Shown here: one piece after another, positions 50,515-64,000 of the stretch | Numbering within the stretch: the first letter of the stretch is position 1 | Layout of the letters: each line of letters begins with the position of its first letter | Assembly: GCA_000004985.1 (NCBI GenBank) | Contig: GG738845.1 | DNA: 64,000 bases | Direction: 5' to 3' (one strand) | DNA from: Naegleria gruberi | Taxonomy: Eukaryota | The notes under the pieces: generated by a model | Database searches by the model: none | Told to the model about the DNA's origin: nothing | The model's input: only the letters and a program-made list of their open reading frames with translations | Made by a program: the position numbers and the translations under genes

Positions 50515-52252
50515 ATGAGCGGCTTGCAATTGTTGAACCCAAATTCTGATTCTGCTAATATTTCTGAAGCTCGTCTGATAAATATTGCTGCTGCAACTTC
50601 AATTCAAAATCTTCTTAAAACCAATATTGGACCAAGAGGAACATTGAAAATGTATGTAGAAAAGTAGTAATACATTATCCGAATAATAATATTTAATAGG
50701 TTGGTCAGTGGTGCTGGTGATATCAGAATCACAAAGGATGGATCCATTCTTCTCAATGAAATGGTACGTTTTATATTATGAATTGTCATAATTAACTTAT
50801 TTATGTGGTAATTAGCAAATTCAACATCCAACAGCAGCCCTTATCGCTCGTACTGCCACAGCACAGGATGACATAACTGGAGATGGTACAACAACAACAG
50901 TTTTATTAATCGGTGAAATGTTACAACAGGCAAACAGATTCTTGATGGAAGGATTGCACCCATCTGTTCTTATTGAGGGTTTTTATTTGGCTAAAGCCGA
51001 AGCCAGAAAATTCCTCGAAACATACAAGGAAGAAATGAAAGAAAAAATCAAGATTGACCGTGAAGTTTTAATTAGTGTTGCTAGAACTGCTCTCCAAACT
51101 AAATTATATCCAGAACTCGCCAATCAAATGGCTGATATTATTGTTGATGCTATCAAATGTGTTCAAATTGATAATCGACCAATTGACTTATTCATGGTTG
51201 AACTTATGCACATGCAACACAAGATGGATCTTGAAACTAGATATGTCAATGGTTTAGTTTTGGATCATGGTGCTCGTCACCCAGATATGAAACGTGAAGC
51301 TAAGGATTGTTATATTTTAACATGCAACGTTGGTTTGGAATATGAAAAATCTGAAGTTCACTCATCTTTCCAAGTCAACAGTGCCGAAAAGAGAAAACAA
51401 CTTGTCGATGCCGAAAGAAAAGTTGTTGATGATAGAGTTCAAAGAATTATTGATTTAAAGCACCTAGTTTGTGGAGATGATCCATCTAAGAACTTTGTTG
51501 TTATTAATCAAAAAGGTATTGATCCTATCTCTCTTGAAATGTTTGCTAAGGCTGGTATTATTGCTTTGAGAAGAGCAAAGAGAAGAAATATGGAACGTTT
51601 AACTTTGGCCTGTGGTGGTGTTGCTATCAATAGCGTTGAAGAAATGGCACCTGACGTTTTGGGATATGCTGACCATGTTTATGAACAAGTTATTGGTGAA
51701 GAAAAATATACTATTGTTGAAGGTTGCAAGAATCCACACAGTTGTACAATTTTATTCAAGGGACCAAATAAGCACACTATTGCCCAAGTGAAGGATGCAG
51801 TCAGAGATGGTTTGAGAGCTGTCAAGAATGCTATTGAAGATGGTGTTGTCATTCCAGGAGCTGGTGCTTTTGAAATTGCTTTAAGTGCTCATTTATTGAA
51901 ATATGCCGACTCTGTTCAAGGTAGAGTTAAGTTGGGAGTTAAATGTTTTGCTGAAGCTCTTTTGGTTATTCCAAAATCTCTTGCTCAAAATTCTGGTCTA
52001 GATACCCAAGATATCTTGATTAAGCTTCAAGAAAAACACCAAAAGGGACAACCAGCTGGTTTGGAAATTTATTCTGGTGAAGCTATTGATCCAATTCAAG
52101 CAGGTATTTTGGATAACTTTATTGTAAAACAACAAACACTGGAAGCTGCCACATTTACTGCCACTCAACTACTCTATGTTGATGAAATTCTCAAGGCAGG
52201 TAGAGCCCAAAAACCAAAGACAGAAGAACAAGATATGGAAGATTTCGAATAA
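50515..52252 (+). CDS. cct6: T-complex protein 1 (CCT/TRiC) subunit zeta, 545 aa, 3 exons
   Basis: Exons are 50515-50651, 50700-50763 and 50816-52252. Intron 50652-50699 is GTATGT..TAG, phase 2. Intron 50764-50815 is GTACGT..TAG, phase 0. Spliced N-terminus: '...[58 protein letters not shown]' versus human CCT6A '...[58 protein letters not shown]'. The ORF track shows only exon 3. Confidence 0.9.
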
Positions 52253-54760: not shown

Positions 54761-57700
54761 ATGAGCGAATTATTTGAAACCAGCAATCAAGAAGATGATT
54801 TGTTCGGGAACAGTGGTGAGGACTTCTCATCCTTTTTGCAACAACCACTTTCGAAACCAATAGGACAAAACACGGAGTTGGTTTCTGAAATGCATAGTAT
54901 TTCTTTATCCGATACTGTGGTTAACCACCCAACACACATTGAACAGGAGAATGACCAACAGGAAAACAATGATCAAATCGTGCCTTCTTATGAAACTGTC
55001 AAAGAAGAAAAAGAAGAAGAACCCCATACTACTCTTCAAGATGATGGAAAAGAATTTAATTCCGAACCGGTAAACAATGATTTAGGTTTTAATGGTGAAG
55101 ACGATTTATTCGGTGGATCAACCAGCAATGTACAGGATTTTGGTAGTATGATACTAATGCAACAAACACCTCCGATAGTTGAACCACATATTGCACCCCA
55201 AGAAATTGTTCCTCCAATTGTTCAAACTTATTTAAATCAGGAGAGTGCCATTCAACACCCTGAAAGTACCCATCCTATAATTTCATCTCCAACTATTAAT
55301 ACATCTTTTCCTCCAAATAGCGTTCCAACACTCAATCAATCCATCATTGTAAACAATAGTAGTGGTGCTACATCAAGTACTTTGAGCCCACCTCCTTTGC
55401 GTTCTACAAATAGTACCTCTTCAATTTCTTCCAGAAATAGATATGTGAATAGTTTCGGAACACAATCCAGATCTGCCTTCACTTTACCTGTTTCTAGCCC
55501 ACCAAGTGGTACTCCAACAAACATCAATCCTCAAACTCCTCCTATGGTGAATACTGAAAGAGTTGTTACAAGCACTCCCCCATATGGAAATTTAAGCAGT
55601 AGTTCTGTTATTCCTCAATATCCTCCAGTGGTTAATGCAATTAATTCAACATTGCCTCAACAAGTTCCAACTCCAACAAATGATAATCACTTTGCAAATC
55701 ACTATTCCAACAGCCAAAGCATGATTCCACTTAACAATAGATCTGCTGTTATGGAAGGATACTCTTCATCACCTCCACCTTTCCAAGGTAGACAAACACC
55801 AACCCAATTTGCAACTACAACTAATGGATTGGTAAATAACCCAATGATTAATAATGGACAAATGGTGAATAACTCATTGATGAATCCTGCTACAGTGAAC
55901 AATCAAAATATAAATCATTTGAATGGTAACTCAATGATGAGCCAATCAACTATGAGTAATATGGGGATGAATAATGGACAAATGATGAATAATTATGGAA
56001 TGATGAACTCTACAATTAACAATGCTCATCCAACTAATTTCATGCCTAACAATATGAATAATTCCATGAATATGATGAATCACCCACATTCCAACAGCCC
56101 AATGATGATGAATAACCCAATGAACCAATACATGAACCCAATGATGATGAATAATTCAATGATGCAAAGATCAATGTCTCCAAATTATCAACAAAATCAA
56201 ATAATATCTAGACAAATTTTAGATCAAGAAATTGAGTTACGTAAAACATATCCAAAACCAATATTTTGCTTTTCATTTGGTGGAAAGATTATTACATCTT
56301 TACCTACTATTAATCCACACTCGCAACCATCAAACAGCTTTGTTCACCAACAAAGAAATCAAGCTCTATACTATCAACCAGGATTATTTAAAGTGCAAAA
56401 ATTGAATCAATTAATTAATTATAGGTCCAGTATTATCAAATCATTGGAGGATTATCCAATCACCAATATTTCTCAACAATTTGATGAAAATAATTCAAAC
56501 AACATTAATATTTTGTTGGATCAATTGGTTAAATATATGAACTTGAAAATATATGAAAAGCAACAAGCCCTTATCCAAGATAATGACGAAAAGTGTATGG
56601 GAGAAAAAATGTTATGGGATTTGGTTAAAATTGTAAGCAAATATGTAAATGGCAATGTGAACATGGTAACTAGTGATATTAATTCCCTTCTTACTGTTCT
56701 AATTAATAACGTACCAACTGAATTACCAATTAATTCAGAAAATGAACAAACCTCCTTCAATGAGGCGGAACATGTTGTCAGTATTCAAAATTTGTTAATC
56801 AATGGCCAAATCAAGCAAGCTTGTCAATATGCACAAACCAACAAGATGTGGTCTCACGCTATACTTTTGAGTAGTATGATTGATAAACAGACATATCAAC
56901 AAGTAGTTTCCACTTTTGCCAAATTGACTCTCAACTTGGGTAGCCCACTTCGTACTCTGTATTGTACATTTGCTGGAAAGCCTTTGGAAGCATTTGAATC
57001 AAACAACTCTGTCAATGTTGATCAATATGGAAATCAATATACATTACAAACATCTCAAAACGAGCAACAACAATTAGAGAAAATGTCCTCTCAGTGGCTA
57101 CAAAATTTATCCATAATGTTTAATAATAGACAAGGTGCTACCAGTCAATCAGTAATTGAAAAGATAGGAGATATGTTGTGGAAGGATTGCTATCAAGTCC
57201 CTCAGTCTCACTTTTGTTACATGATAGGTGACTTGAGTGCTATTGTATCAGCATTTACGATAGCATCTAATTATCAAGCTGCAACTTCAAATCAATCATC
57301 CAAGGAAAATATTCAGCAACAATCGCAACAAGCAATGATTGCAATTTCCAATATTCTCTCCACTAGTATTGTAAATAAGAGAGTAATTTTATTAGGTGGT
57401 GATAATAAGAGAGATCTTAGACATTATATTAACGAAGAAACAATTCAATTGTCAGAGATTTTTGAATTACTTAAAGCAATTATCACTAAGAATTGCTTGA
57501 CAGCTGTCCAAGAACAAAATACCCCTCCAATATCAATGATTATTAATTCATCATTGTTAACCTACAAGTTGGTATATGCATACTGCCTTGCTGATTTTGG
57601 ATTCTTGGAAAAGGCAAATGAGTGCTGTGATTATTTGATTGAAATTGTGAAGAGAACTCAGCAATCTATGAAGTTCAATAATTATTTCAAACTCCACCTT

Positions 57701-58633
57701 CAAGAGCTCAAAAATAGAATTATTGAAAGTAATAGACTTAACAATATAGTAGTACCTCAAAGGAAACCAACCTCAGGTGCAGCTAATAATTCAGGGGTAA
57801 CGGGATGGTTCATGAAGGGTTTAGAGAGCATAATCCACGGTGGAGATAGTCCAACAACTCCAGTCGAAAGTACAACTACCCTCATTCAAACCAATACAAT
57901 CAATACCAACTCAATGATACCAAACAATAATATTCCATCCCAACAACAGCCTAATTATCACAATACCATTGGCCAGGGTATTCAAGCAAATCCAATTCGC
58001 TCATCTACACCAACTAATATGATTTCTACTCAGCCTTCTTATCAATCATCTACTCAAACCCCACCACCCTCAACTCACACACCTCAACCACCTTCCTATC
58101 AAGCAACATCTATTCAAACTCCACCACCTTCCAATAATACTCCTCCACCAACCTCCACACCTCCAGTCAACCAAGCAATTAATAATACCTATGCTGAAGA
58201 AGGAAGTGGTGTTGGTGGTTGGTTCAAGAGTTTGTGGGGAGGAGGAAGTAAAGCAAGTAAGAAAGAAGCAAACATTGGCAAGAAGAATGAATTTTATTAC
58301 GATGACATAAAAAAGAGATGGGTAAGAAGAGGTCAAGAGAACGAAGTTGAAGCACAGGTCCAAGCTCCTCCACCATCTCTCTCTGCAATCTCTTCCACAA
58401 CCCTCCAATCTGCTGCCTCACAAATGAGAGGAGGTGCTGGTAGATATGTAAACATGTTCAGTGGCCAACAACCCACAAGTAATCCACCAATGATGTCAAA
58501 TATGCCTCCACCAATGATGGGAAATATGCCTCCAAGTAACCCAATGACGGGAAATATGCCTCCACCTTCCTTTGGTACAATGCCATCATCTAATATTATG
58601 CCTCCATTCTTCAATCCTAACACCAATAATTAG
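54761..58633 (+). CDS. large low-complexity protein (1290 aa), candidate Sec16-like COPII ER-exit-site scaffold
   Basis: The architecture is an acidic N-terminus, then S/T/P/N-rich and Met/Asn-rich disordered regions, then a ~450-aa globular central domain starting with the beta-strand 'PIFCFSFGGKIITSLP' (like the Sec16/Sec31 ACE1 blade that inserts into Sec13) and containing 'WSHAILLSSMIDKQTYQQVVSTFAKL', then a Pro-rich C-terminus with MPPP repeats. The family assignment is from memory of Sec16 central conserved domain features, not a database hit. Confidence 0.4.
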   Translation: MSELFETSNQEDDLFGNSGEDFSSFLQQPLSKPIGQNTELVSEMHSISLSDTVVNHPTHIEQENDQQENNDQIVPSYETVKEEKEEEPHTTLQDDGKEFNSEPVNNDLGFNGEDDLFGGSTSNVQDFGSMILMQQTPPIVEPHIAPQEIVPPIVQTYLNQESAIQHPESTHPIISSPTINTSFPPNSVPTLNQSIIVNNSSGATSSTLSPPPLRSTNSTSSISSRNRYVNSFGTQSRSAFTLPVSSPPSGTPTNINPQTPPMVNTERVVTSTPPYGNLSSSSVIPQYPPVVNAINSTLPQQVPTPTNDNHFANHYSNSQSMIPLNNRSAVMEGYSSSPPPFQGRQTPTQFATTTNGLVNNPMINNGQMVNNSLMNPATVNNQNINHLNGNSMMSQSTMSNMGMNNGQMMNNYGMMNSTINNAHPTNFMPNNMNNSMNMMNHPHSNSPMMMNNPMNQYMNPMMMNNSMMQRSMSPNYQQNQIISRQILDQEIELRKTYPKPIFCFSFGGKIITSLPTINPHSQPSNSFVHQQRNQALYYQPGLFKVQKLNQLINYRSSIIKSLEDYPITNISQQFDENNSNNINILLDQLVKYMNLKIYEKQQALIQDNDEKCMGEKMLWDLVKIVSKYVNGNVNMVTSDINSLLTVLINNVPTELPINSENEQTSFNEAEHVVSIQNLLINGQIKQACQYAQTNKMWSHAILLSSMIDKQTYQQVVSTFAKLTLNLGSPLRTLYCTFAGKPLEAFESNNSVNVDQYGNQYTLQTSQNEQQQLEKMSSQWLQNLSIMFNNRQGATSQSVIEKIGDMLWKDCYQVPQSHFCYMIGDLSAIVSAFTIASNYQAATSNQSSKENIQQQSQQAMIAISNILSTSIVNKRVILLGGDNKRDLRHYINEETIQLSEIFELLKAIITKNCLTAVQEQNTPPISMIINSSLLTYKLVYAYCLADFGFLEKANECCDYLIEIVKRTQQSMKFNNYFKLHLQELKNRIIESNRLNNIVVPQRKPTSGAANNSGVTGWFMKGLESIIHGGDSPTTPVESTTTLIQTNTINTNSMIPNNNIPSQQQPNYHNTIGQGIQANPIRSSTPTNMISTQPSYQSSTQTPPPSTHTPQPPSYQATSIQTPPPSNNTPPPTSTPPVNQAINNTYAEEGSGVGGWFKSLWGGGSKASKKEANIGKKNEFYYDDIKKRWVRRGQENEVEAQVQAPPPSLSAISSTTLQSAASQMRGGAGRYVNMFSGQQPTSNPPMMSNMPPPMMGNMPPSNPMTGNMPPPSFGTMPSSNIMPPFFNPNTNN

Positions 58634-58695
58634 TTGGAATAAAATGCAAAAAATAATTGAATAACAAAACTTCAATCAAAAAAAATACCAGCACA

Positions 58696-59277
58696 ATGCC
58701 AAAAGTAAGAGAATTAAAACACCACGAACAAAAGCTATTAAAAAGAGTTGATTTTTTAAATTGGAAGTCGGATGGTGTCACTCCCGAATATAAGGAATAT
58801 ATCTTAAAAACCATTCAAAAATACCAATTAAAAGATCAGAAGGAATTTTTTAATTACCAGAGAATAGCAACACAAATCAACAACACATTAAATAGTATTA
58901 AAGAATTAGATGATAAAATTTATAGAGACTTTAAAGTTGATCAATTAGTGATGCTTGGTAAAAAATTATTTGATATGGGAATTTTGGATTCGGAAGCAGA
59001 AATAGAAACATTAAAAAAGATAACTGTGGGTAGATTGTGCAGGAGAAGAATCTCGTATCTTCTCAAGGTTTTACACTTCTCTGAAAGTGTAAGATTGGCT
59101 AATTTGAATATTCAACATGGCCATATTAGGATTGGACCAGAAGTTGTCAAAGATGAAGCATTCCTTGTTTCAAGAAATCTTGAAGATTTTATTACTTGGA
59201 CAAACAAATCAAGAATCAAATCAACAATTCGTAAATTTAATGAGACATTTGATGATTTTGAAGAGCTACAAGAATAA
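58696..59277 (+). CDS. imp3: U3 small nucleolar ribonucleoprotein IMP3 (ribosomal protein S4/S9 N-terminal + S4 RNA-binding domain)
   Basis: 'KVRELKHHEQKLLKRVDFLNW' and 'RRISYLLKVLHFSESVRLANLNIQHGHIRIGPEVVKDEAFLVSRNLEDFITW' align with human IMP3 ('KLKFHEQKLLKQVDFLNW', '...[30 protein letters not shown]'). The start is taken at Met 58696, not the ORF-track 58657. Confidence 0.8.
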   Translation: MPKVRELKHHEQKLLKRVDFLNWKSDGVTPEYKEYILKTIQKYQLKDQKEFFNYQRIATQINNTLNSIKELDDKIYRDFKVDQLVMLGKKLFDMGILDSEAEIETLKKITVGRLCRRRISYLLKVLHFSESVRLANLNIQHGHIRIGPEVVKDEAFLVSRNLEDFITWTNKSRIKSTIRKFNETFDDFEELQE

Positions 59278-59470
59278 AATTAATTCTACTGATTTTCCTT
59301 CTCTCAAAATATGTTATCTTCACAAGTGCTAGGAAGGTGATTAGGGTTGCTCTATTGATTTCTACCTGCATCCCTTGGAAAACCATACGGAAACTTGAAC
59401 ACACGTCTTGTAGAACAATGTTCATTTTGAATGAAGCAATATTCTGAAAACAAGGCATATTGTGATTATT

Positions 59471-60691
59471 TTATATTTTACAAGAATTCAGGTATTGTCT
59501 TAATTCAGATTCAAGATCAGAAGCAGAAGGTCTGTCATGCATGACAGGATCAACCATGGCCATTAGAATGGCTCTCAGCTCTAAACTCATGGTTGCTGTA
59601 AGTTTTGCAACAAGTGGTCCCCAATCAGAGACTTTACATTGAGGATTTCTGGATGTGGCACTTTCATAAAAATCTGTGAAAACTTTTGGATTCATCAAGT
59701 ACAAAACAGTAGCTCCAAGCGAAAAAATATCTGCCTTTTCGTCAAAATATTTACATCCATCAATTTCTGGTGGTTTGAACATGGGCTCCAAATATGGAAG
59801 ATCATGTTTCAAATACTCTTGTCCAATAACATCAAACAGGCGATAAGCCTCTCTTTTGAAATGAACACAGTATTCGAAATCCTGAAGAACAAAACAAAGA
59901 AAGTTTTGAGATAGTTTTCCTCCTCTTCTTCTTACATTAGATGGACTCACATGCAAATGACAAACATTTCTCTTGTGTAGAAATCTTAGAGCACTTGCTA
60001 TGTCTAAAATTAAAAGACATACTGTAGTTTCATCCCATATTAGATCTTGTTCAATATTTTCTAGAGACTCCATTTCACAGTATATATTGTTATTGAATAA
60101 TATGAATGGTAATTGTTTGGAATAATCAGAATGAGAAAGAAGTAGGCCAATTATGTATTTCTCATTCTTTGTCAATTGTTTTAGTATTGTATTGCTTGCA
60201 ATGGAATACATTGTAGAATTGTTATTAGATTCACCAATATATTTCAACACTTTTCTGTTGAACAAAATACTTGTTGTTTCTGTGGAAAAAGTTGATGTTA
60301 AATTGTGTTTTGTCTTTGAGTGTTGATATTCAATGGACGATTCGATGGCAAAATCTGTTTTTTCTTTTTCGTTTTGGTTGGCCTTTCTGATAGGGCTATA
60401 AAGGGCTAGTCTCGTTGAAAGAACAGATATTAACAATAAAATGGAATCTAAATCTGTAGAGCTGAATTCCTTATGATACAACCGATAATTCTTAATAAAT
60501 ACAGTGGATTCTGTTAAAGTCTCAGAGTCCTCATCTCTTCCTGGTGTGCAAGTTTTGAAGGGACATGCATCCAAGATAAGTAAATGAATTTTGGCCTTAT
60601 TTACAATTAGAGCCATATTCTTTGTTTTGTTTTCGACCTCGTCCATGGAAATATTGGAATTCATTAAATTATTTACCAAAGAACTTTTCAT
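59471..60691 (-). CDS. protein-kinase-like protein, predicted catalytically inactive (pseudokinase); probably has additional 5' exon(s)
   Basis: The C-terminal ~200 aa have kinase C-lobe landmarks in the right order, but the catalytic loop 'HRDLKPSN' reads 'HLHVSPSNV', 'DFG' reads 'DFE', and 'APE' reads 'PPE'. 'DIFSLGATVLYLM' and a terminal 'HDRPSASDL' are retained. No GxGxxG loop is recognisable in the N-terminal half. The frame stays open for 49 codons upstream of ATG 60691 (to 60838). Confidence 0.55.
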   Translation of the reverse strand: MKSSLVNNLMNSNISMDEVENKTKNMALIVNKAKIHLLILDACPFKTCTPGRDEDSETLTESTVFIKNYRLYHKEFSSTDLDSILLLISVLSTRLALYSPIRKANQNEKEKTDFAIESSIEYQHSKTKHNLTSTFSTETTSILFNRKVLKYIGESNNNSTMYSIASNTILKQLTKNEKYIIGLLLSHSDYSKQLPFILFNNNIYCEMESLENIEQDLIWDETTVCLLILDIASALRFLHKRNVCHLHVSPSNVRRRGGKLSQNFLCFVLQDFEYCVHFKREAYRLFDVIGQEYLKHDLPYLEPMFKPPEIDGCKYFDEKADIFSLGATVLYLMNPKVFTDFYESATSRNPQCKVSDWGPLVAKLTATMSLELRAILMAMVDPVMHDRPSASDLESELRQYLNSCKI

Positions 60692-60894
60692 GACTATTAA
60701 AGTTTTGAAAAGATCGGATCCTAAATTTTCCCAATCATCCTCATCATCTGATCTAACTTGAGAAAAGAAATAGTTCTTTCCAAAAGATTGAGCACAACCA
60801 TCAATTGATATGTAAAAGTTTTGGAAAGGCCATCCACCTTGGCTTGCAATTGATTTGAACTATTCTTGTATGAGACAAGTAACAGAAATAAAAC

Positions 60895-61764
60895 TTACCA
60901 ATGATATTTTGAATCAGTCATGGAGATTAAGTTTTTCATTATGGAATGAAATGAGATAGAAATGTCATTCTTTGTTGTTTCCTCATTCAAACAATCACTA
61001 ACAAACTGAAACACACTGCTCAAAACTCCAAGAAGCGATTTTTTGCTGCTACGAGGAAGGGAATCTGATATTTGTTCCAGCAAAATATCCAATGATTTGT
61101 CATTTGTAACGTTTGATGATTCCTCTTCCATTTTCGTTGCTAGTACAGACAATTGTTGAAAAATTGATTCTTCGAATAATTCATGATGTTTCAAGTTTTG
61201 ATCAAAACTTGAAAGATATATACCCAAAGCGCAACAAAAGGAATCAACCTCGGATTTTCGGAAAGGGGTTGAATCGAGGATGTGATTAAAATGTTTCTTT
61301 TCCTGCAATTGTTGACCCATGTTGGATAGGTATTGGGTTAATTGTTTGATAAGAATTTCAAATTTATCTTCATCCGATAATTCCTCACATTCGTTGACAT
61401 CATCAATAAATTTACATAGACTCTCCTCATGATGTTTACTAACCCTCTTTTTGAGCCTTAATTTGTTCAGTGTTAAGGGAGAGGGTTTTGGAGTTTGATG
61501 TAAGGATTGGATCGTATTTTGTTGTTTGGTGCTTTTTGTTGGGAATGATCCAAGCTTTTCCAAATTATCATTACTGCCACGGTTTTGAATTGGTATACCA
61601 AACATAATGGTGAATCTGTCCAAATGGTTTTTTGGTGAGTTAACAGATGTAGGTGATAGATTTGTTGAGAGTTTGTGTGAGAGTAATAATGGAGAGGTGT
61701 TCTCCCTTGTTGGAGTGTTTCCAACAAATGTCTTGGAGGTATGTTTGTGGAGACTCATCAGCAC
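60895..61764 (-). CDS. hypothetical protein (289 aa); possibly the upstream part of the kinase-like gene
   Basis: ORF with gene-like composition and a Ser/Thr/Pro-rich N-terminus. Its stop is embedded in TGGTAAGTT (donor-like). I could not find a phase-compatible acceptor to join it to the downstream kinase-like exon, so it is kept separate. Confidence 0.3.
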   Translation of the reverse strand: MLMSLHKHTSKTFVGNTPTRENTSPLLLSHKLSTNLSPTSVNSPKNHLDRFTIMFGIPIQNRGSNDNLEKLGSFPTKSTKQQNTIQSLHQTPKPSPLTLNKLRLKKRVSKHHEESLCKFIDDVNECEELSDEDKFEILIKQLTQYLSNMGQQLQEKKHFNHILDSTPFRKSEVDSFCCALGIYLSSFDQNLKHHELFEESIFQQLSVLATKMEEESSNVTNDKSLDILLEQISDSLPRSSKKSLLGVLSSVFQFVSDCLNEETTKNDISISFHSIMKNLISMTDSKYHW

Positions 61765-62120
61765 CTCCTTTTTAAACGTCTTGGAAATATTTTGTTCTTA
61801 TTATACCACAGTGCTATCAATAATGGAAGAAATTGTAACGGTTGGAGGGTAGTGTCTGTAAGGCGTTCAAATAAGGGTGTGGATTAATTTTTTAAGAATT
61901 AAAATTCATTTATCTAAAAATTAAAAAATTACATATTTTGCGCTACCCAATTAATTAATAATTTTATTTGAAAATTATTCAAGAACTGTTTGAACTTTTC
62001 CCATTTCTATTGAAAACATTCTGGTAATTCAATATTCCACTAATTTAAAAATATCGAAACTTTTTTTAGGAAATCTATTTACAAATTTATTTACATTTTT
62101 TAAATTTTCTTTTTACACCT

Positions 62121-62375
62121 CTATTTCTTCTCCTCAAAGGCTTTCATGATTTCATCAATCTTCAACTCTTCAGTGGTTGCTGATTGATGTTTTGGTTTTG
62201 AATCTCCGAGAAAATCATCCATAAAACTCATGGAGGAGGTTGTTGAGGAAGCACTTTCGCTTGGTTTAACATTATTATTGGAGCTAAAAAAATCTCCCAA
62301 CTCATCACCTAACTTATTATGTGGTTGAGTGGTTGGTGTAGAGTTTGATTGAGTGGTAAAATTGAATTCTTCCAT
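62121..62375 (-). CDS. hypothetical small acidic protein (84 aa) with repeated D-x-(L)GDFF / DDFLGD motifs
   Basis: ORF only. It has two acidic Phe-containing short linear motifs ('DELGDFFSS', 'MDDFLGDS') that resemble adaptor/clathrin-binding DxF-type motifs. This is speculative. Confidence 0.25.
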   Translation of the reverse strand: MEEFNFTTQSNSTPTTQPHNKLGDELGDFFSSNNNVKPSESASSTTSSMSFMDDFLGDSKPKHQSATTEELKIDEIMKAFEEKK

Positions 62376-62564
62376 ATCGAACAGTGTAATTGACTCTTTT
62401 TTTCTTTGCTTATTTTTTTAGTTACTTTATATTGACAGCATGACGTGATAGATACATTTTTGGTTTGAATGTTGACAAAAGTATTTCTTACTTGTATTCT
62501 TTACAAAATAAAACTTGAAATAAATATGAATCATTGAAAAATTTAAAGTTGTTGTTTATTGGAT

Positions 62565-63870
62565 TTATTTCTTATTCCAAGCATCCATAACTTGTTTCAT
62601 GGTTTCTCCGAGTCTGGCAGGAGATCTGGAGACGACAACACCAGCATCTTCCAAAGCCTTAATCTTTGATGGAGCATCACCCTTACCACCACTGATAACG
62701 GCACCAGCGTGACCCATTCTTCTACCTGGTGGAGCAGTAACACCAGCAATGAAACCAACAACTGGCTTCTTAATTGGGTGATTCTTTAAGAATTCGGCAG
62801 CATCTTCTTCAGCTTGACCACCGATCTCACCAATCATAATAATACCTTCAGTTTCAGGATCATTCAAGAACAAATCCAAAACTTGAATAAAGTTAGTACC
62901 ATTGAATGGATCACCACCAATACCAATACAAGTGGATTGTCCCAAATTGACAGCAGTAGTTTGGGAAACAGCTTCATAAGTCAAAGTACCGGAACGAGAA
63001 ACAATACCAATCTTACCCTTTCTGTGAATGTATCCAGGCATGATACCAATCTTGGATTCTTCAGGTTTAATAACACCAGGACAATTTGGACCAACCAAAC
63101 GAATGTGCAAATTGTTTCCGTATTCAGGAGCAGAAGGAACCAATTTACGGAACAATTCAAGATCTGAACCCTTTCCAAGAACAGCATTACCCTTTGAACC
63201 AAAAGATGGTTTAAAGATTTCATCAAGAGTCATTCCTTGGGCAACTTCATCAGCAACTTGACGTGGTGCACCATATTTACGGAACATTTCCAAGTTCTTT
63301 TCATTGAGAGCTTGCTTGACAATGAGCCTGTGTTGTTTCCAATCATTATCATCATAAATTTTGTTTAAAGATTATTTTGATTGAATCATCATAATTTTCC
63401 ATATTTTCCAAGTAATTTAATAAATTCCAATTAATAATAATTGCTATTACTTACATATCATGTTGAGGAATACCTTCAGTAATACAAACAATCAATGGCA
63501 TTTCGGCTTCAATACTTTCCAAAATAGCTTGGGCAGCACCAGAAGGTGGAACGTAGATAACACTGGCAGAAGCACCAACCTTTTCTCTAGCTTCCTTTAC
63601 ACTAGCAAAGATTGGAAGGTCCATGTTTGGGTGAGTTTGACCACCTTTTTGTGGGTGAACACCACCAACCATCTTGGTACCATATTCAATAGCTTGTTTG
63701 GTGTGGAAAGTACCTTGCTTACCGGTAACACCTTGGCAGATAACTCTGGTATTCTTGTTGAGGAGCAATGTTCTCTTTTGAGTATTCTTAGTTAGGAGTT
63801 GTTGAACAATGCTGGCTTGAAGAGCAGATTTCTTGTTGGTGTTTTGGAAGAGTGATTTAGAGAGAAACAT
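62565..63870 (-). CDS. suclg1: succinyl-CoA ligase (succinate--CoA ligase) alpha subunit, mitochondrial, 2 exons, with an atypical internal insertion
   Basis: Exon 1 is 63455-63870 (presequence MFLSKSL... then the CoA-binding domain '[29 protein letters not shown]...[11 protein letters not shown]'). The 127-nt intron 63328-63454 is GTAAGT..ACAG, phase 2. Exon 2 is 62565-63327 ('[11 protein letters not shown]...[45 protein letters not shown]...GDPFNGTNF...MGHAGA'). The phosphohistidine-loop region and C-terminus are conserved with pig/E. coli SCS-alpha. About 60 extra residues lie between the two conserved domains. Confidence 0.85.
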
Positions 63871-64000
63871 TTTTGGATTATTTTTTATGAGTCCTCTTTG
63901 AGACTTCTCGTTTTCCAAGATCAAAACCAGAGTCAATTATTCAGTCTTTATTCTCCATGTTTAATTAAACAAAAGCTTTTATTTGCGCCATTTCACTTGT

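Follow-up and report, generated by a model that had tools for sequence, protein, structure and literature searches.

A conserved two-exon gene of Naegleria gruberi encoding a predicted pseudokinase of a Naegleria-restricted family

Background

Pseudokinases derived from active paralogues are common and make up roughly a tenth of many kinomes, a figure given, for example, in PMC4718504. We describe here a gene of this predicted type on the minus strand of a 64,000-nucleotide stretch of the Naegleria gruberi genome (contig GG738845.1, the whole stretch being called the window hereafter). Its two exons encode a protein of about 749 residues, which we read, with a probability of about 0.6, as a conserved pseudokinase of a family confined to Naegleria and probably a non-catalytic partner of its paralogues.

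Among described systems, HER3/ErbB3 offers the most obvious comparison. HER3 is a receptor tyrosine kinase that has a glycine loop and carries HRN in place of HRD. As in HER3, the catalytic Asp is replaced in the Naegleria protein (by Asn in three of the four orthologues considered here), the DFG Asp and the fold are kept, the protein is a paralogue of active kinases, and a role as allosteric partner is plausible. However, there is no specific sequence kinship between the two, HER3 is not prominent among the structural matches, and the window gene of this protist encodes a soluble protein whose N-terminal domains are unrelated. With Toxoplasma ROP5/ROP18 and with STRADα/LKB1, both pairs of a pseudokinase and an active paralogue, homology is limited to the shared kinase fold. 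The best single-sequence match in a phmmer search of PDB sequences is ULK1 (E=1.5e-6), reflecting C-lobe similarity to ULK1/ULK2 of the Atg1 family; in contrast to these, the window protein lacks ULK-type C-terminal domains, its kinase domain being C-terminal with no room beyond. Membership of the ULK/Atg1 family was rejected: the profile of the Naegleria family matches ULK1 no better than GCN2, CDPK, COT and PAK1, and Pfam finds kinase families only.

The resemblance to a group of Naegleria paralogues is much broader. It extends to a three-part architecture (in full-length members), a kinase domain without a glycine loop, residues K490, K514 and E520, and the C-lobe landmarks, at 22-29% identity. 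These paralogues keep HRDVKPxN, APE and mostly DFG, whereas the window gene and its orthologues (C9374_004735, P0001 and P0127/P0227) lack the catalytic Asp and Lys and have DFE.

Altered catalytic motifs in a kinase domain

The features of the kinase domain, in full-length residue numbering, are the following.

59474..60274, minus strand: kinase-like domain, bilobal, without a glycine-rich loop (residues ~483-749)
60161..60253, minus strand: N-lobe segment with K490 (60251-60253), K514 (60179-60181) and the candidate αC Glu E520 (60161-60163), all kept
59936..59959, minus strand: catalytic-loop remnant HLHVSPSN for HRDxKxxN (Arg to Leu, catalytic Asp to His, Lys to Ser, Asn kept)
59873..59881, minus strand: DFE for DFG (Asp kept, Gly to Glu), found in all four orthologues
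59765..59773, minus strand: PPE for APE, in N. gruberi only; the 99.7%-identical strain represented by contig L002 does not differ there

The strings quoted in the initial annotation of this locus (ALRFLHKRNV, HLHVSPSNV, DFE, PPE, DIFSLGATVLYLM and HDRPSASDL) are all present in the minus-strand translation of 59471-60901, and its reading of them as protein kinase landmarks is borne out by profile and structure. The Pfam Pkinase profile (PF00069) aligns its positions 30-257 with residues 150-393 of the 406-residue open reading frame (ORF) in exon 2; the E-value is 6e-11, and the score of 42.6 bits exceeds the cut-off of 31.7. The PK_Tyr_Ser-Thr profile scores low (E=0.018). Moreover, the protein has a kinase fold in the AlphaFold2 model described below.

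In the alignment with ULK1, CHLHVSPSNV lies on IHRDLKPQNI, QDFEY on ADFGF and MFKPPEI on MYMAPEV, so the three substitutions fall exactly at the HRD, DFG and APE positions. The replacement of both the catalytic Asp and the Lys is found in the family alignment as well, where H590 again occupies the position of the HRD Asp, while the DFG Asp (D614) and the catalytic-loop Asn (N595) are kept. Neither a normal HRD or DFG elsewhere in the protein nor one brought back by a frameshift or an intron was found: HRD, DFG and GxGxxG are absent from every minus-strand frame of 59400-61800. Neither a small intron nor a local frameshift can thus rescue the motifs, and the proposal that an alternative frame restores canonical motifs was rejected on this ground.

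The other motif changes carry less weight than was first supposed. The substitution of DFE for DFG is real and occurs in four of four orthologues, but it changes the Gly and leaves the Mg-binding Asp in place; it is weak evidence alone, since paralogues also vary at this position (DFN and DFS). Likewise, PPE is present in the window and is confined to N. gruberi, APE being kept by the three remaining orthologues. As had been noted, there is no recognisable glycine loop in any frame. However, the loop is absent from every member of the family, including paralogues with intact HRD and DFG, and is therefore not part of the pseudokinase signature. A VAIK-type lysine, reported as missing along with the loop, is probably present. 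The candidate β3 Lys differs with the method: Pfam places K493 at profile position 30, the VAIK position, MAFFT pairs K490 with the VAIK Lys of generic kinases, and the AlphaFold2 model has K514 in the strand that precedes αC. K490 and K514 are invariant across the Naegleria family, and E520 is kept in the pseudokinase according to the family alignments.

By the standard sequence definition, which requires that one or more of VAIK Lys, HRD Asp and DFG Asp be missing, the protein is classed as a pseudokinase, the HRD Asp being replaced and the DFG Asp kept. Its phosphotransfer activity would thereby be lost. Since the DFG Asp, the catalytic-loop Asn, two invariant lysines and the candidate αC Glu are all retained, binding of a nucleotide or a metal may persist.

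Orthologues and selection

The motif states of the four orthologues, drawn from independent assemblies, are listed below.

N. gruberi (window): catalytic loop HLHVSPSN; DFE; PPE
Species of contig L001 (protein P0001): catalytic loop HLNVNPSN; DFE; APE
Species of run SRR13201268 (contig L006, protein P0227): catalytic loop HRNVNPNV; DFE; APE
N. lovaniensis genomic DNA (contig L007): catalytic loop HRNVTP, a frame error, then NN; DFE; APE

The catalytic Asp and the catalytic-loop Lys are gone from all four. The HRD Asp position holds His in N. gruberi and Asn in the three others, and the HRD Arg is still present in the lovaniensis clade. Comparison of orthologues thus shows the Asp and Lys losses and DFE to be common to the group, PPE alone being confined to N. 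gruberi. It also upholds the initial view that the motif changes are not sequencing noise, given that the losses recur in four independently assembled orthologues while the paralogues are canonical.

P0001, from Logan run ERR14653892, is the sole close homologue in a collection of 5.8 billion proteins; it is 69% identical to the exon 2 ORF across 95% of the length of the latter. Among the matches listed by a word-indexed search with the family profile were P0001 and two unrelated kinases. Scans of Joint Genome Institute metagenomes, by DNA pattern and by protein, gave no further alleles or orthologues.

In N. lovaniensis the motif has to be read from the DNA. Positions 6230-6560 of L007 (PYSW02000022.1) encode ALRYLHQRNIIHRNVTP, followed by a one-base frame error in a run of C (CCCC where CCCCC is expected) and then by NNIKCRG...VLCDFENCSHF. 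The 912-residue model C9374_004735 bridges this error by an artificial intron (...ASALR to LLDVRENNYL), and as a result the published model has neither the catalytic loop nor DFE.

Divergence was estimated by the Nei-Gojobori method over 665 codons, between the window coding sequence, corrected for the one-base deletion described below, and the spliced coding sequence of L001. The proportion of nonsynonymous differences (pN) is 0.19 and that of synonymous differences (pS) has reached saturation, at 0.79. Within the protein, conservation is strongest in the kinase domain (pN 0.16); for the neighbouring IMP3-like gene pN is 0.034 at the same pS. These values indicate purifying selection, at a moderately fast rate of change, since the divergence of N. 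gruberi and the L001 species. Relative to the paralogues that retain them, the loss of the catalytic Asp and Lys is placed by sequence comparison as ancestral.

A Naegleria family of three-part proteins

An exhaustive HMMER search with a two-sequence profile against 1.84 billion representatives gave 101 matches at E<=1e-3, a very low count for a kinase domain. The best 13 (E from 1e-290 to 1e-15), together with P0149, are Naegleria proteins or proteins of metagenome and Logan contigs that resemble them. These 13 include NAEGRDRAFT_67111, _73170, _67959 and _30959 of N. gruberi, C9374_004735, _001601 and _007537/8 of N. lovaniensis, and FDP41_012777 of N. fowleri, the model of which stops before the catalytic loop. 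All 13 match the Pfam Pkinase profile. The matches that follow are generic multi-kinase proteins of Tritrichomonas, a diatom and cyanobacteria. In the test of family membership the E-values of the profile to Naegleria proteins ranged from 1e-68 to 1e-15; tblastn with family members matches 59480-61749 of the window. The gene thus belongs to a Naegleria-restricted family. Our literature search found nothing specific on Naegleria pseudokinases and no report on this kinase family.

The paralogues of N. gruberi and N. lovaniensis keep HRDVKPxN, APE and DFG, apart from one paralogue that has DFN and another that has DFS. Full-length members share a common architecture: a helical N-terminal region, a central domain marked by DWE, MKS and KVxGL...HLFxLEA, and the kinase domain. 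In the window protein the central domain is located as follows.

60386..60811, minus strand: central α/β domain (full-length residues ~304-445) with the motifs DWE, MKS and K(V/M)xGL...HLFxL(E/D)A

This domain is kept in all full-length members. AlphaFold2 run on a two-sequence alignment gave an unusable model, with a mean confidence (predicted local distance difference test, pLDDT) of 30. With 71 aligned sequences, comprising family members and weak kinase matches, the model reached pLDDT 81.5 and a predicted template modelling score of 0.70. It comprises the α/β central domain at model residues 15-138, a disordered linker at 145-176 and a complete bilobal kinase domain at 181-446. The central domain is predicted to consist of strands and helices with pLDDT 64-93. 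The N-terminal 492 residues have no Pfam match and no PDB sequence match, and when all 13 family members were scanned, Pfam reported kinase families only, with nothing on the N-terminal parts.

The initial annotation had proposed a comparison with orthologues in related amoebozoan genomes. This placement was mistaken, for Naegleria gruberi is a member of the Heterolobosea (Discoba), and the database entry 'predicted protein [Naegleria gruberi]' has 100% identity with the CCT-zeta ORF at 50918-52249 of the window. Willaertia magna (82%) and Acrasis kona (75%) provide the next named matches of that ORF.

Gene structure

The open frame upstream of the ATG and the neighbouring ORF of 289 residues had been taken as parts of a larger multi-exon protein, and this proved correct. 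The gene is composed of the following parts.

61758..59471, minus strand: whole gene, two exons, ~749-residue protein
60899..61758, minus strand: exon 1, with the ATG at 61758 and ~286 codons plus two bases
Exon 1 product: low-complexity N-terminus, then a helical region at residues ~95-286 (60901-61476), the latter common to paralogues
60860..60898, minus strand: spliceosomal intron of 39 nucleotides (GTAAGT...AATAG), phase 2; unspliced read-through leads to a TAA stop
59471..60859, minus strand: exon 2, stop codon included, holding the 406-residue ORF 59471-60691

Exon 1 corresponds to the ORF at 60895..61764 (289 residues), which ends in ...KYHW and has its stop within the GTAAGT donor. It is kept in L001 and in the N. 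lovaniensis protein P0122, more weakly in the paralogues P0123, P0222 and P0224, and an identical 287-residue exon 1 product is called as a gene on the metagenome contigs L004 and L005. In exon 2 the frame stays open upstream of the ATG at 60691. The position of the intron is shared by three species, being found in the window, in L001 (GTATGT...TAAAG), where it connects the two ORFs in frame, and in the N. lovaniensis model P0122. Splicing of the window sequence from the end of exon 1 at 60899 across the intron at 60860-60898 yields CSNQLQAKVDGLSKTF, the counterpart of which in L001 is CSKQLPAKVDGLSKTF; the differences between the two are mainly synonymous and include a TCC/AGC serine switch. 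The two exons belong to a real and conserved gene.

Near the 3' end of its gene, L001 has an extra short intron at 2006-2056 (GTAAGT...CAAAG), right after HDRPK, which is absent in N. gruberi and indicates intron gain or loss between close relatives. Because of this intron the database protein P0001 ends with a read-through tail, KVSILVKVIL followed by a stop.

A one-base deletion in the reference sequence

Two further features concern the start of exon 2.

60810..60811, minus strand: deletion of one A, shifting the frame between the conserved acceptor and the remainder of exon 2
Exon start at 60842, minus strand: alternative acceptor TTGCAAG/CC, skipping 60842..60859 and restoring the frame in the window allele (743 residues); a computed splice model alone

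The deletion was located with the help of contigs L004 and L005, which come from an independent metagenome assembly (ENA ERZ929261 / ERR1078381) and share 99.9% identity with the window. At 60810/60811, where the window has ACA-TATCA, both contigs read ACAATATCA. With the A restored, the sequence encodes ...KTFTISIDGC..., parallel to ...KTFEISVDGC... of L001, and 749 residues in all; the frame so restored is the one used in L001 (segment 287-303). Either the assembly is in error at this point or the strain carries a frameshift of its own. It is owing to this deletion that there is no annotated N. gruberi protein at the locus. Indeed, a 90%-cluster search of the 5.8-billion-protein collection gave no N. 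gruberi protein containing the ORF, and the gene appears to be unannotated in N. gruberi.

The reference and the N. gruberi strain of ERR1078381 differ at 58671, 59294, 59296, 59390, 59982, 60175, 60238 and 60484, the differences including a 3-nucleotide indel in the spacer before the IMP3-like gene. Four of them are substitutions in exon 2, two synonymous and two nonsynonymous (I152F and F237Y in the numbering of the 406-residue ORF); F237Y gives ALRYLH, as in N. lovaniensis.

Genomic neighbourhood

The neighbours in the window are housekeeping genes, for Sec16, an IMP3-like S4 protein, Rad51, a DEAD-box helicase, Mak16 and the succinyl-CoA ligase alpha subunit. L001 is syntenic with the window, its gene likewise adjoining IMP3-like and Sec16-like genes. 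The Sec16 homologue (54761-58633, plus strand, 1290 residues) matches Pfam TPR_Sec16 and the Sec16 mid-region; its conserved core is flanked on either side by very long stretches of low complexity rich in Asn, Met and Pro. The IMP3-like and pseudokinase genes converge, and the short spacer separating them contains a 73-residue ORF (59237-59458, minus strand) that is a gene call on both L002 and L003. This ORF overlaps the IMP3-like gene at the 3' end of the latter and is probably a spurious call of prokaryotic style.

On the other side, the succinyl-CoA ligase alpha gene (62565-63936, minus strand) consists of two ORFs (62565-63293 and 63451-63936), implying an intron of ~150 nucleotides, longer than the 39-nucleotide intron of the pseudokinase gene. 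An ORF of 84 residues rich in Ser, Thr and Asp (62121-62375, minus strand) lies between these two genes; it is also a gene call on L004 and has no Pfam match. The ligase gene adjoins the pseudokinase gene in three species (window 61758-63936; L007 4001-8975; L006 142-1184), upstream of its 5' end in N. gruberi but, in N. lovaniensis and the L006 species, downstream of its 3' end. This difference points to a local rearrangement.

Discussion

The orthologue group had lost the catalytic Asp and Lys by the time N. gruberi and N. lovaniensis separated, with DFG changing to DFE, and purifying selection has acted on the protein since. It could act non-catalytically, through its conserved fold and the two N-terminal domains that it shares with active paralogues, possibly as an allosteric or scaffolding partner of these paralogues or by competing with them for binding partners. 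By analogy with described systems, it is probably such a non-catalytic partner or competitor. Of the earlier description as a catalytically dead scaffold kinase, the pseudokinase part holds by sequence, whereas deadness is a prediction from sequence and the scaffolding partner is inferred.

Several points weigh against this interpretation. Predictions of dead kinases from sequence can fail, as the examples of HER3 (HRN) and CASK show. The whole family lacks the glycine loop, so the paralogues called active may be unconventional kinases, which would weaken the contrast between active and dead members. The partnership with paralogues is proposed from analogy with HER3, STRADα and ROP5. Synonymous sites are saturated, so that an exact dN/dS ratio (with Nei-Gojobori dS) is not computable. 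Finally, the reference allele is frameshifted, and the gene might be null in strain NEG-M.

This last point leads to an alternative that we consider unlikely, in which the deletion is real, the copy was recently inactivated in the sequenced strain, the protein is cut after exon 1 plus ~46 residues, and a conserved pseudokinase exists in other strains and species only. Indeed, use of the conserved acceptor in the window sequence leads to a stop after ...KVDGLSKTFTYQLMV...GKI, and ACATATCA at 60810/60811 combined with the acceptor at 60859 would give the truncated form. The deletion also lies outside any long homopolymer (AA to A), and the absence of an annotated N. gruberi protein from the locus agrees with a null allele. 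However, the reading frame in the rest of the 1.3-kb exon 2 runs without interruption in the window, the 99.9%-identical strain is intact, and use of the alternative acceptor at 60842 would bring back the frame in the computed splice model. The N. lovaniensis assembly, moreover, has a single-base frame error in the same gene, in its C homopolymer, which shows that assembly errors of this kind occur. The two synonymous and two nonsynonymous changes between the window and the metagenome strain are uninformative on this question.

It is distinctly improbable, in our view, that the protein is an atypical but active kinase, catalysing without the canonical base, for example by weak Asp-independent transfer or with another residue as base. 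Weak transfer of this type has been reported for HER3, and the orthologues of the lovaniensis clade carry HRN, the very substitution of HER3. The retention of D614, N595, two invariant lysines and the candidate αC Glu would suit such an enzyme, as would the fact that the kinase domain, with its pN of 0.16, is the most conserved part. Nevertheless, among the orthologues the base position is His or Asn and the Lys position Ser, Asn or Thr, which argues against a conserved replacement chemistry; the catalytic-loop Asn is displaced in one of them (HRNVNPNV), and the glycine loop is missing. The idea that the resemblance arose by chance, or that sequencing noise has altered a normal active kinase, has the low PK_Tyr_Ser-Thr score as the sole point in its favour and is refuted by the orthologue comparison, so that we give it practically no credence.

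A wider reading of the pseudokinase and its relatives can be offered tentatively, as a possibility that we hold to be doubtful. The whole Naegleria family may be an undescribed kinase group with novel helical and α/β domains and a kinase domain that lacks the glycine loop but is otherwise intact in its motifs, suggesting an unusual mode of nucleotide binding. The window gene might then encode an ancient, dedicated pseudokinase subunit that regulates active paralogues via the shared N-terminal domains.

A pseudokinase paralogue within a lineage-specific kinase expansion is a well-known kind of finding, and its general interest is modest. For Naegleria, an unannotated gene of 749 residues is added to the N. 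gruberi reference, in which a one-base frame error or allele is pinpointed, and the N. lovaniensis model C9374_004735 is exposed as mis-spliced around a homopolymer error, with the catalytic loop deleted. Beyond these corrections, a genus-restricted family of three-domain kinases is defined, with a member in N. fowleri, a pathogen. The active-looking and inactive-looking members of the family are matched by nature, and studies of kinase regulation in Heterolobosea could use them as a pair.
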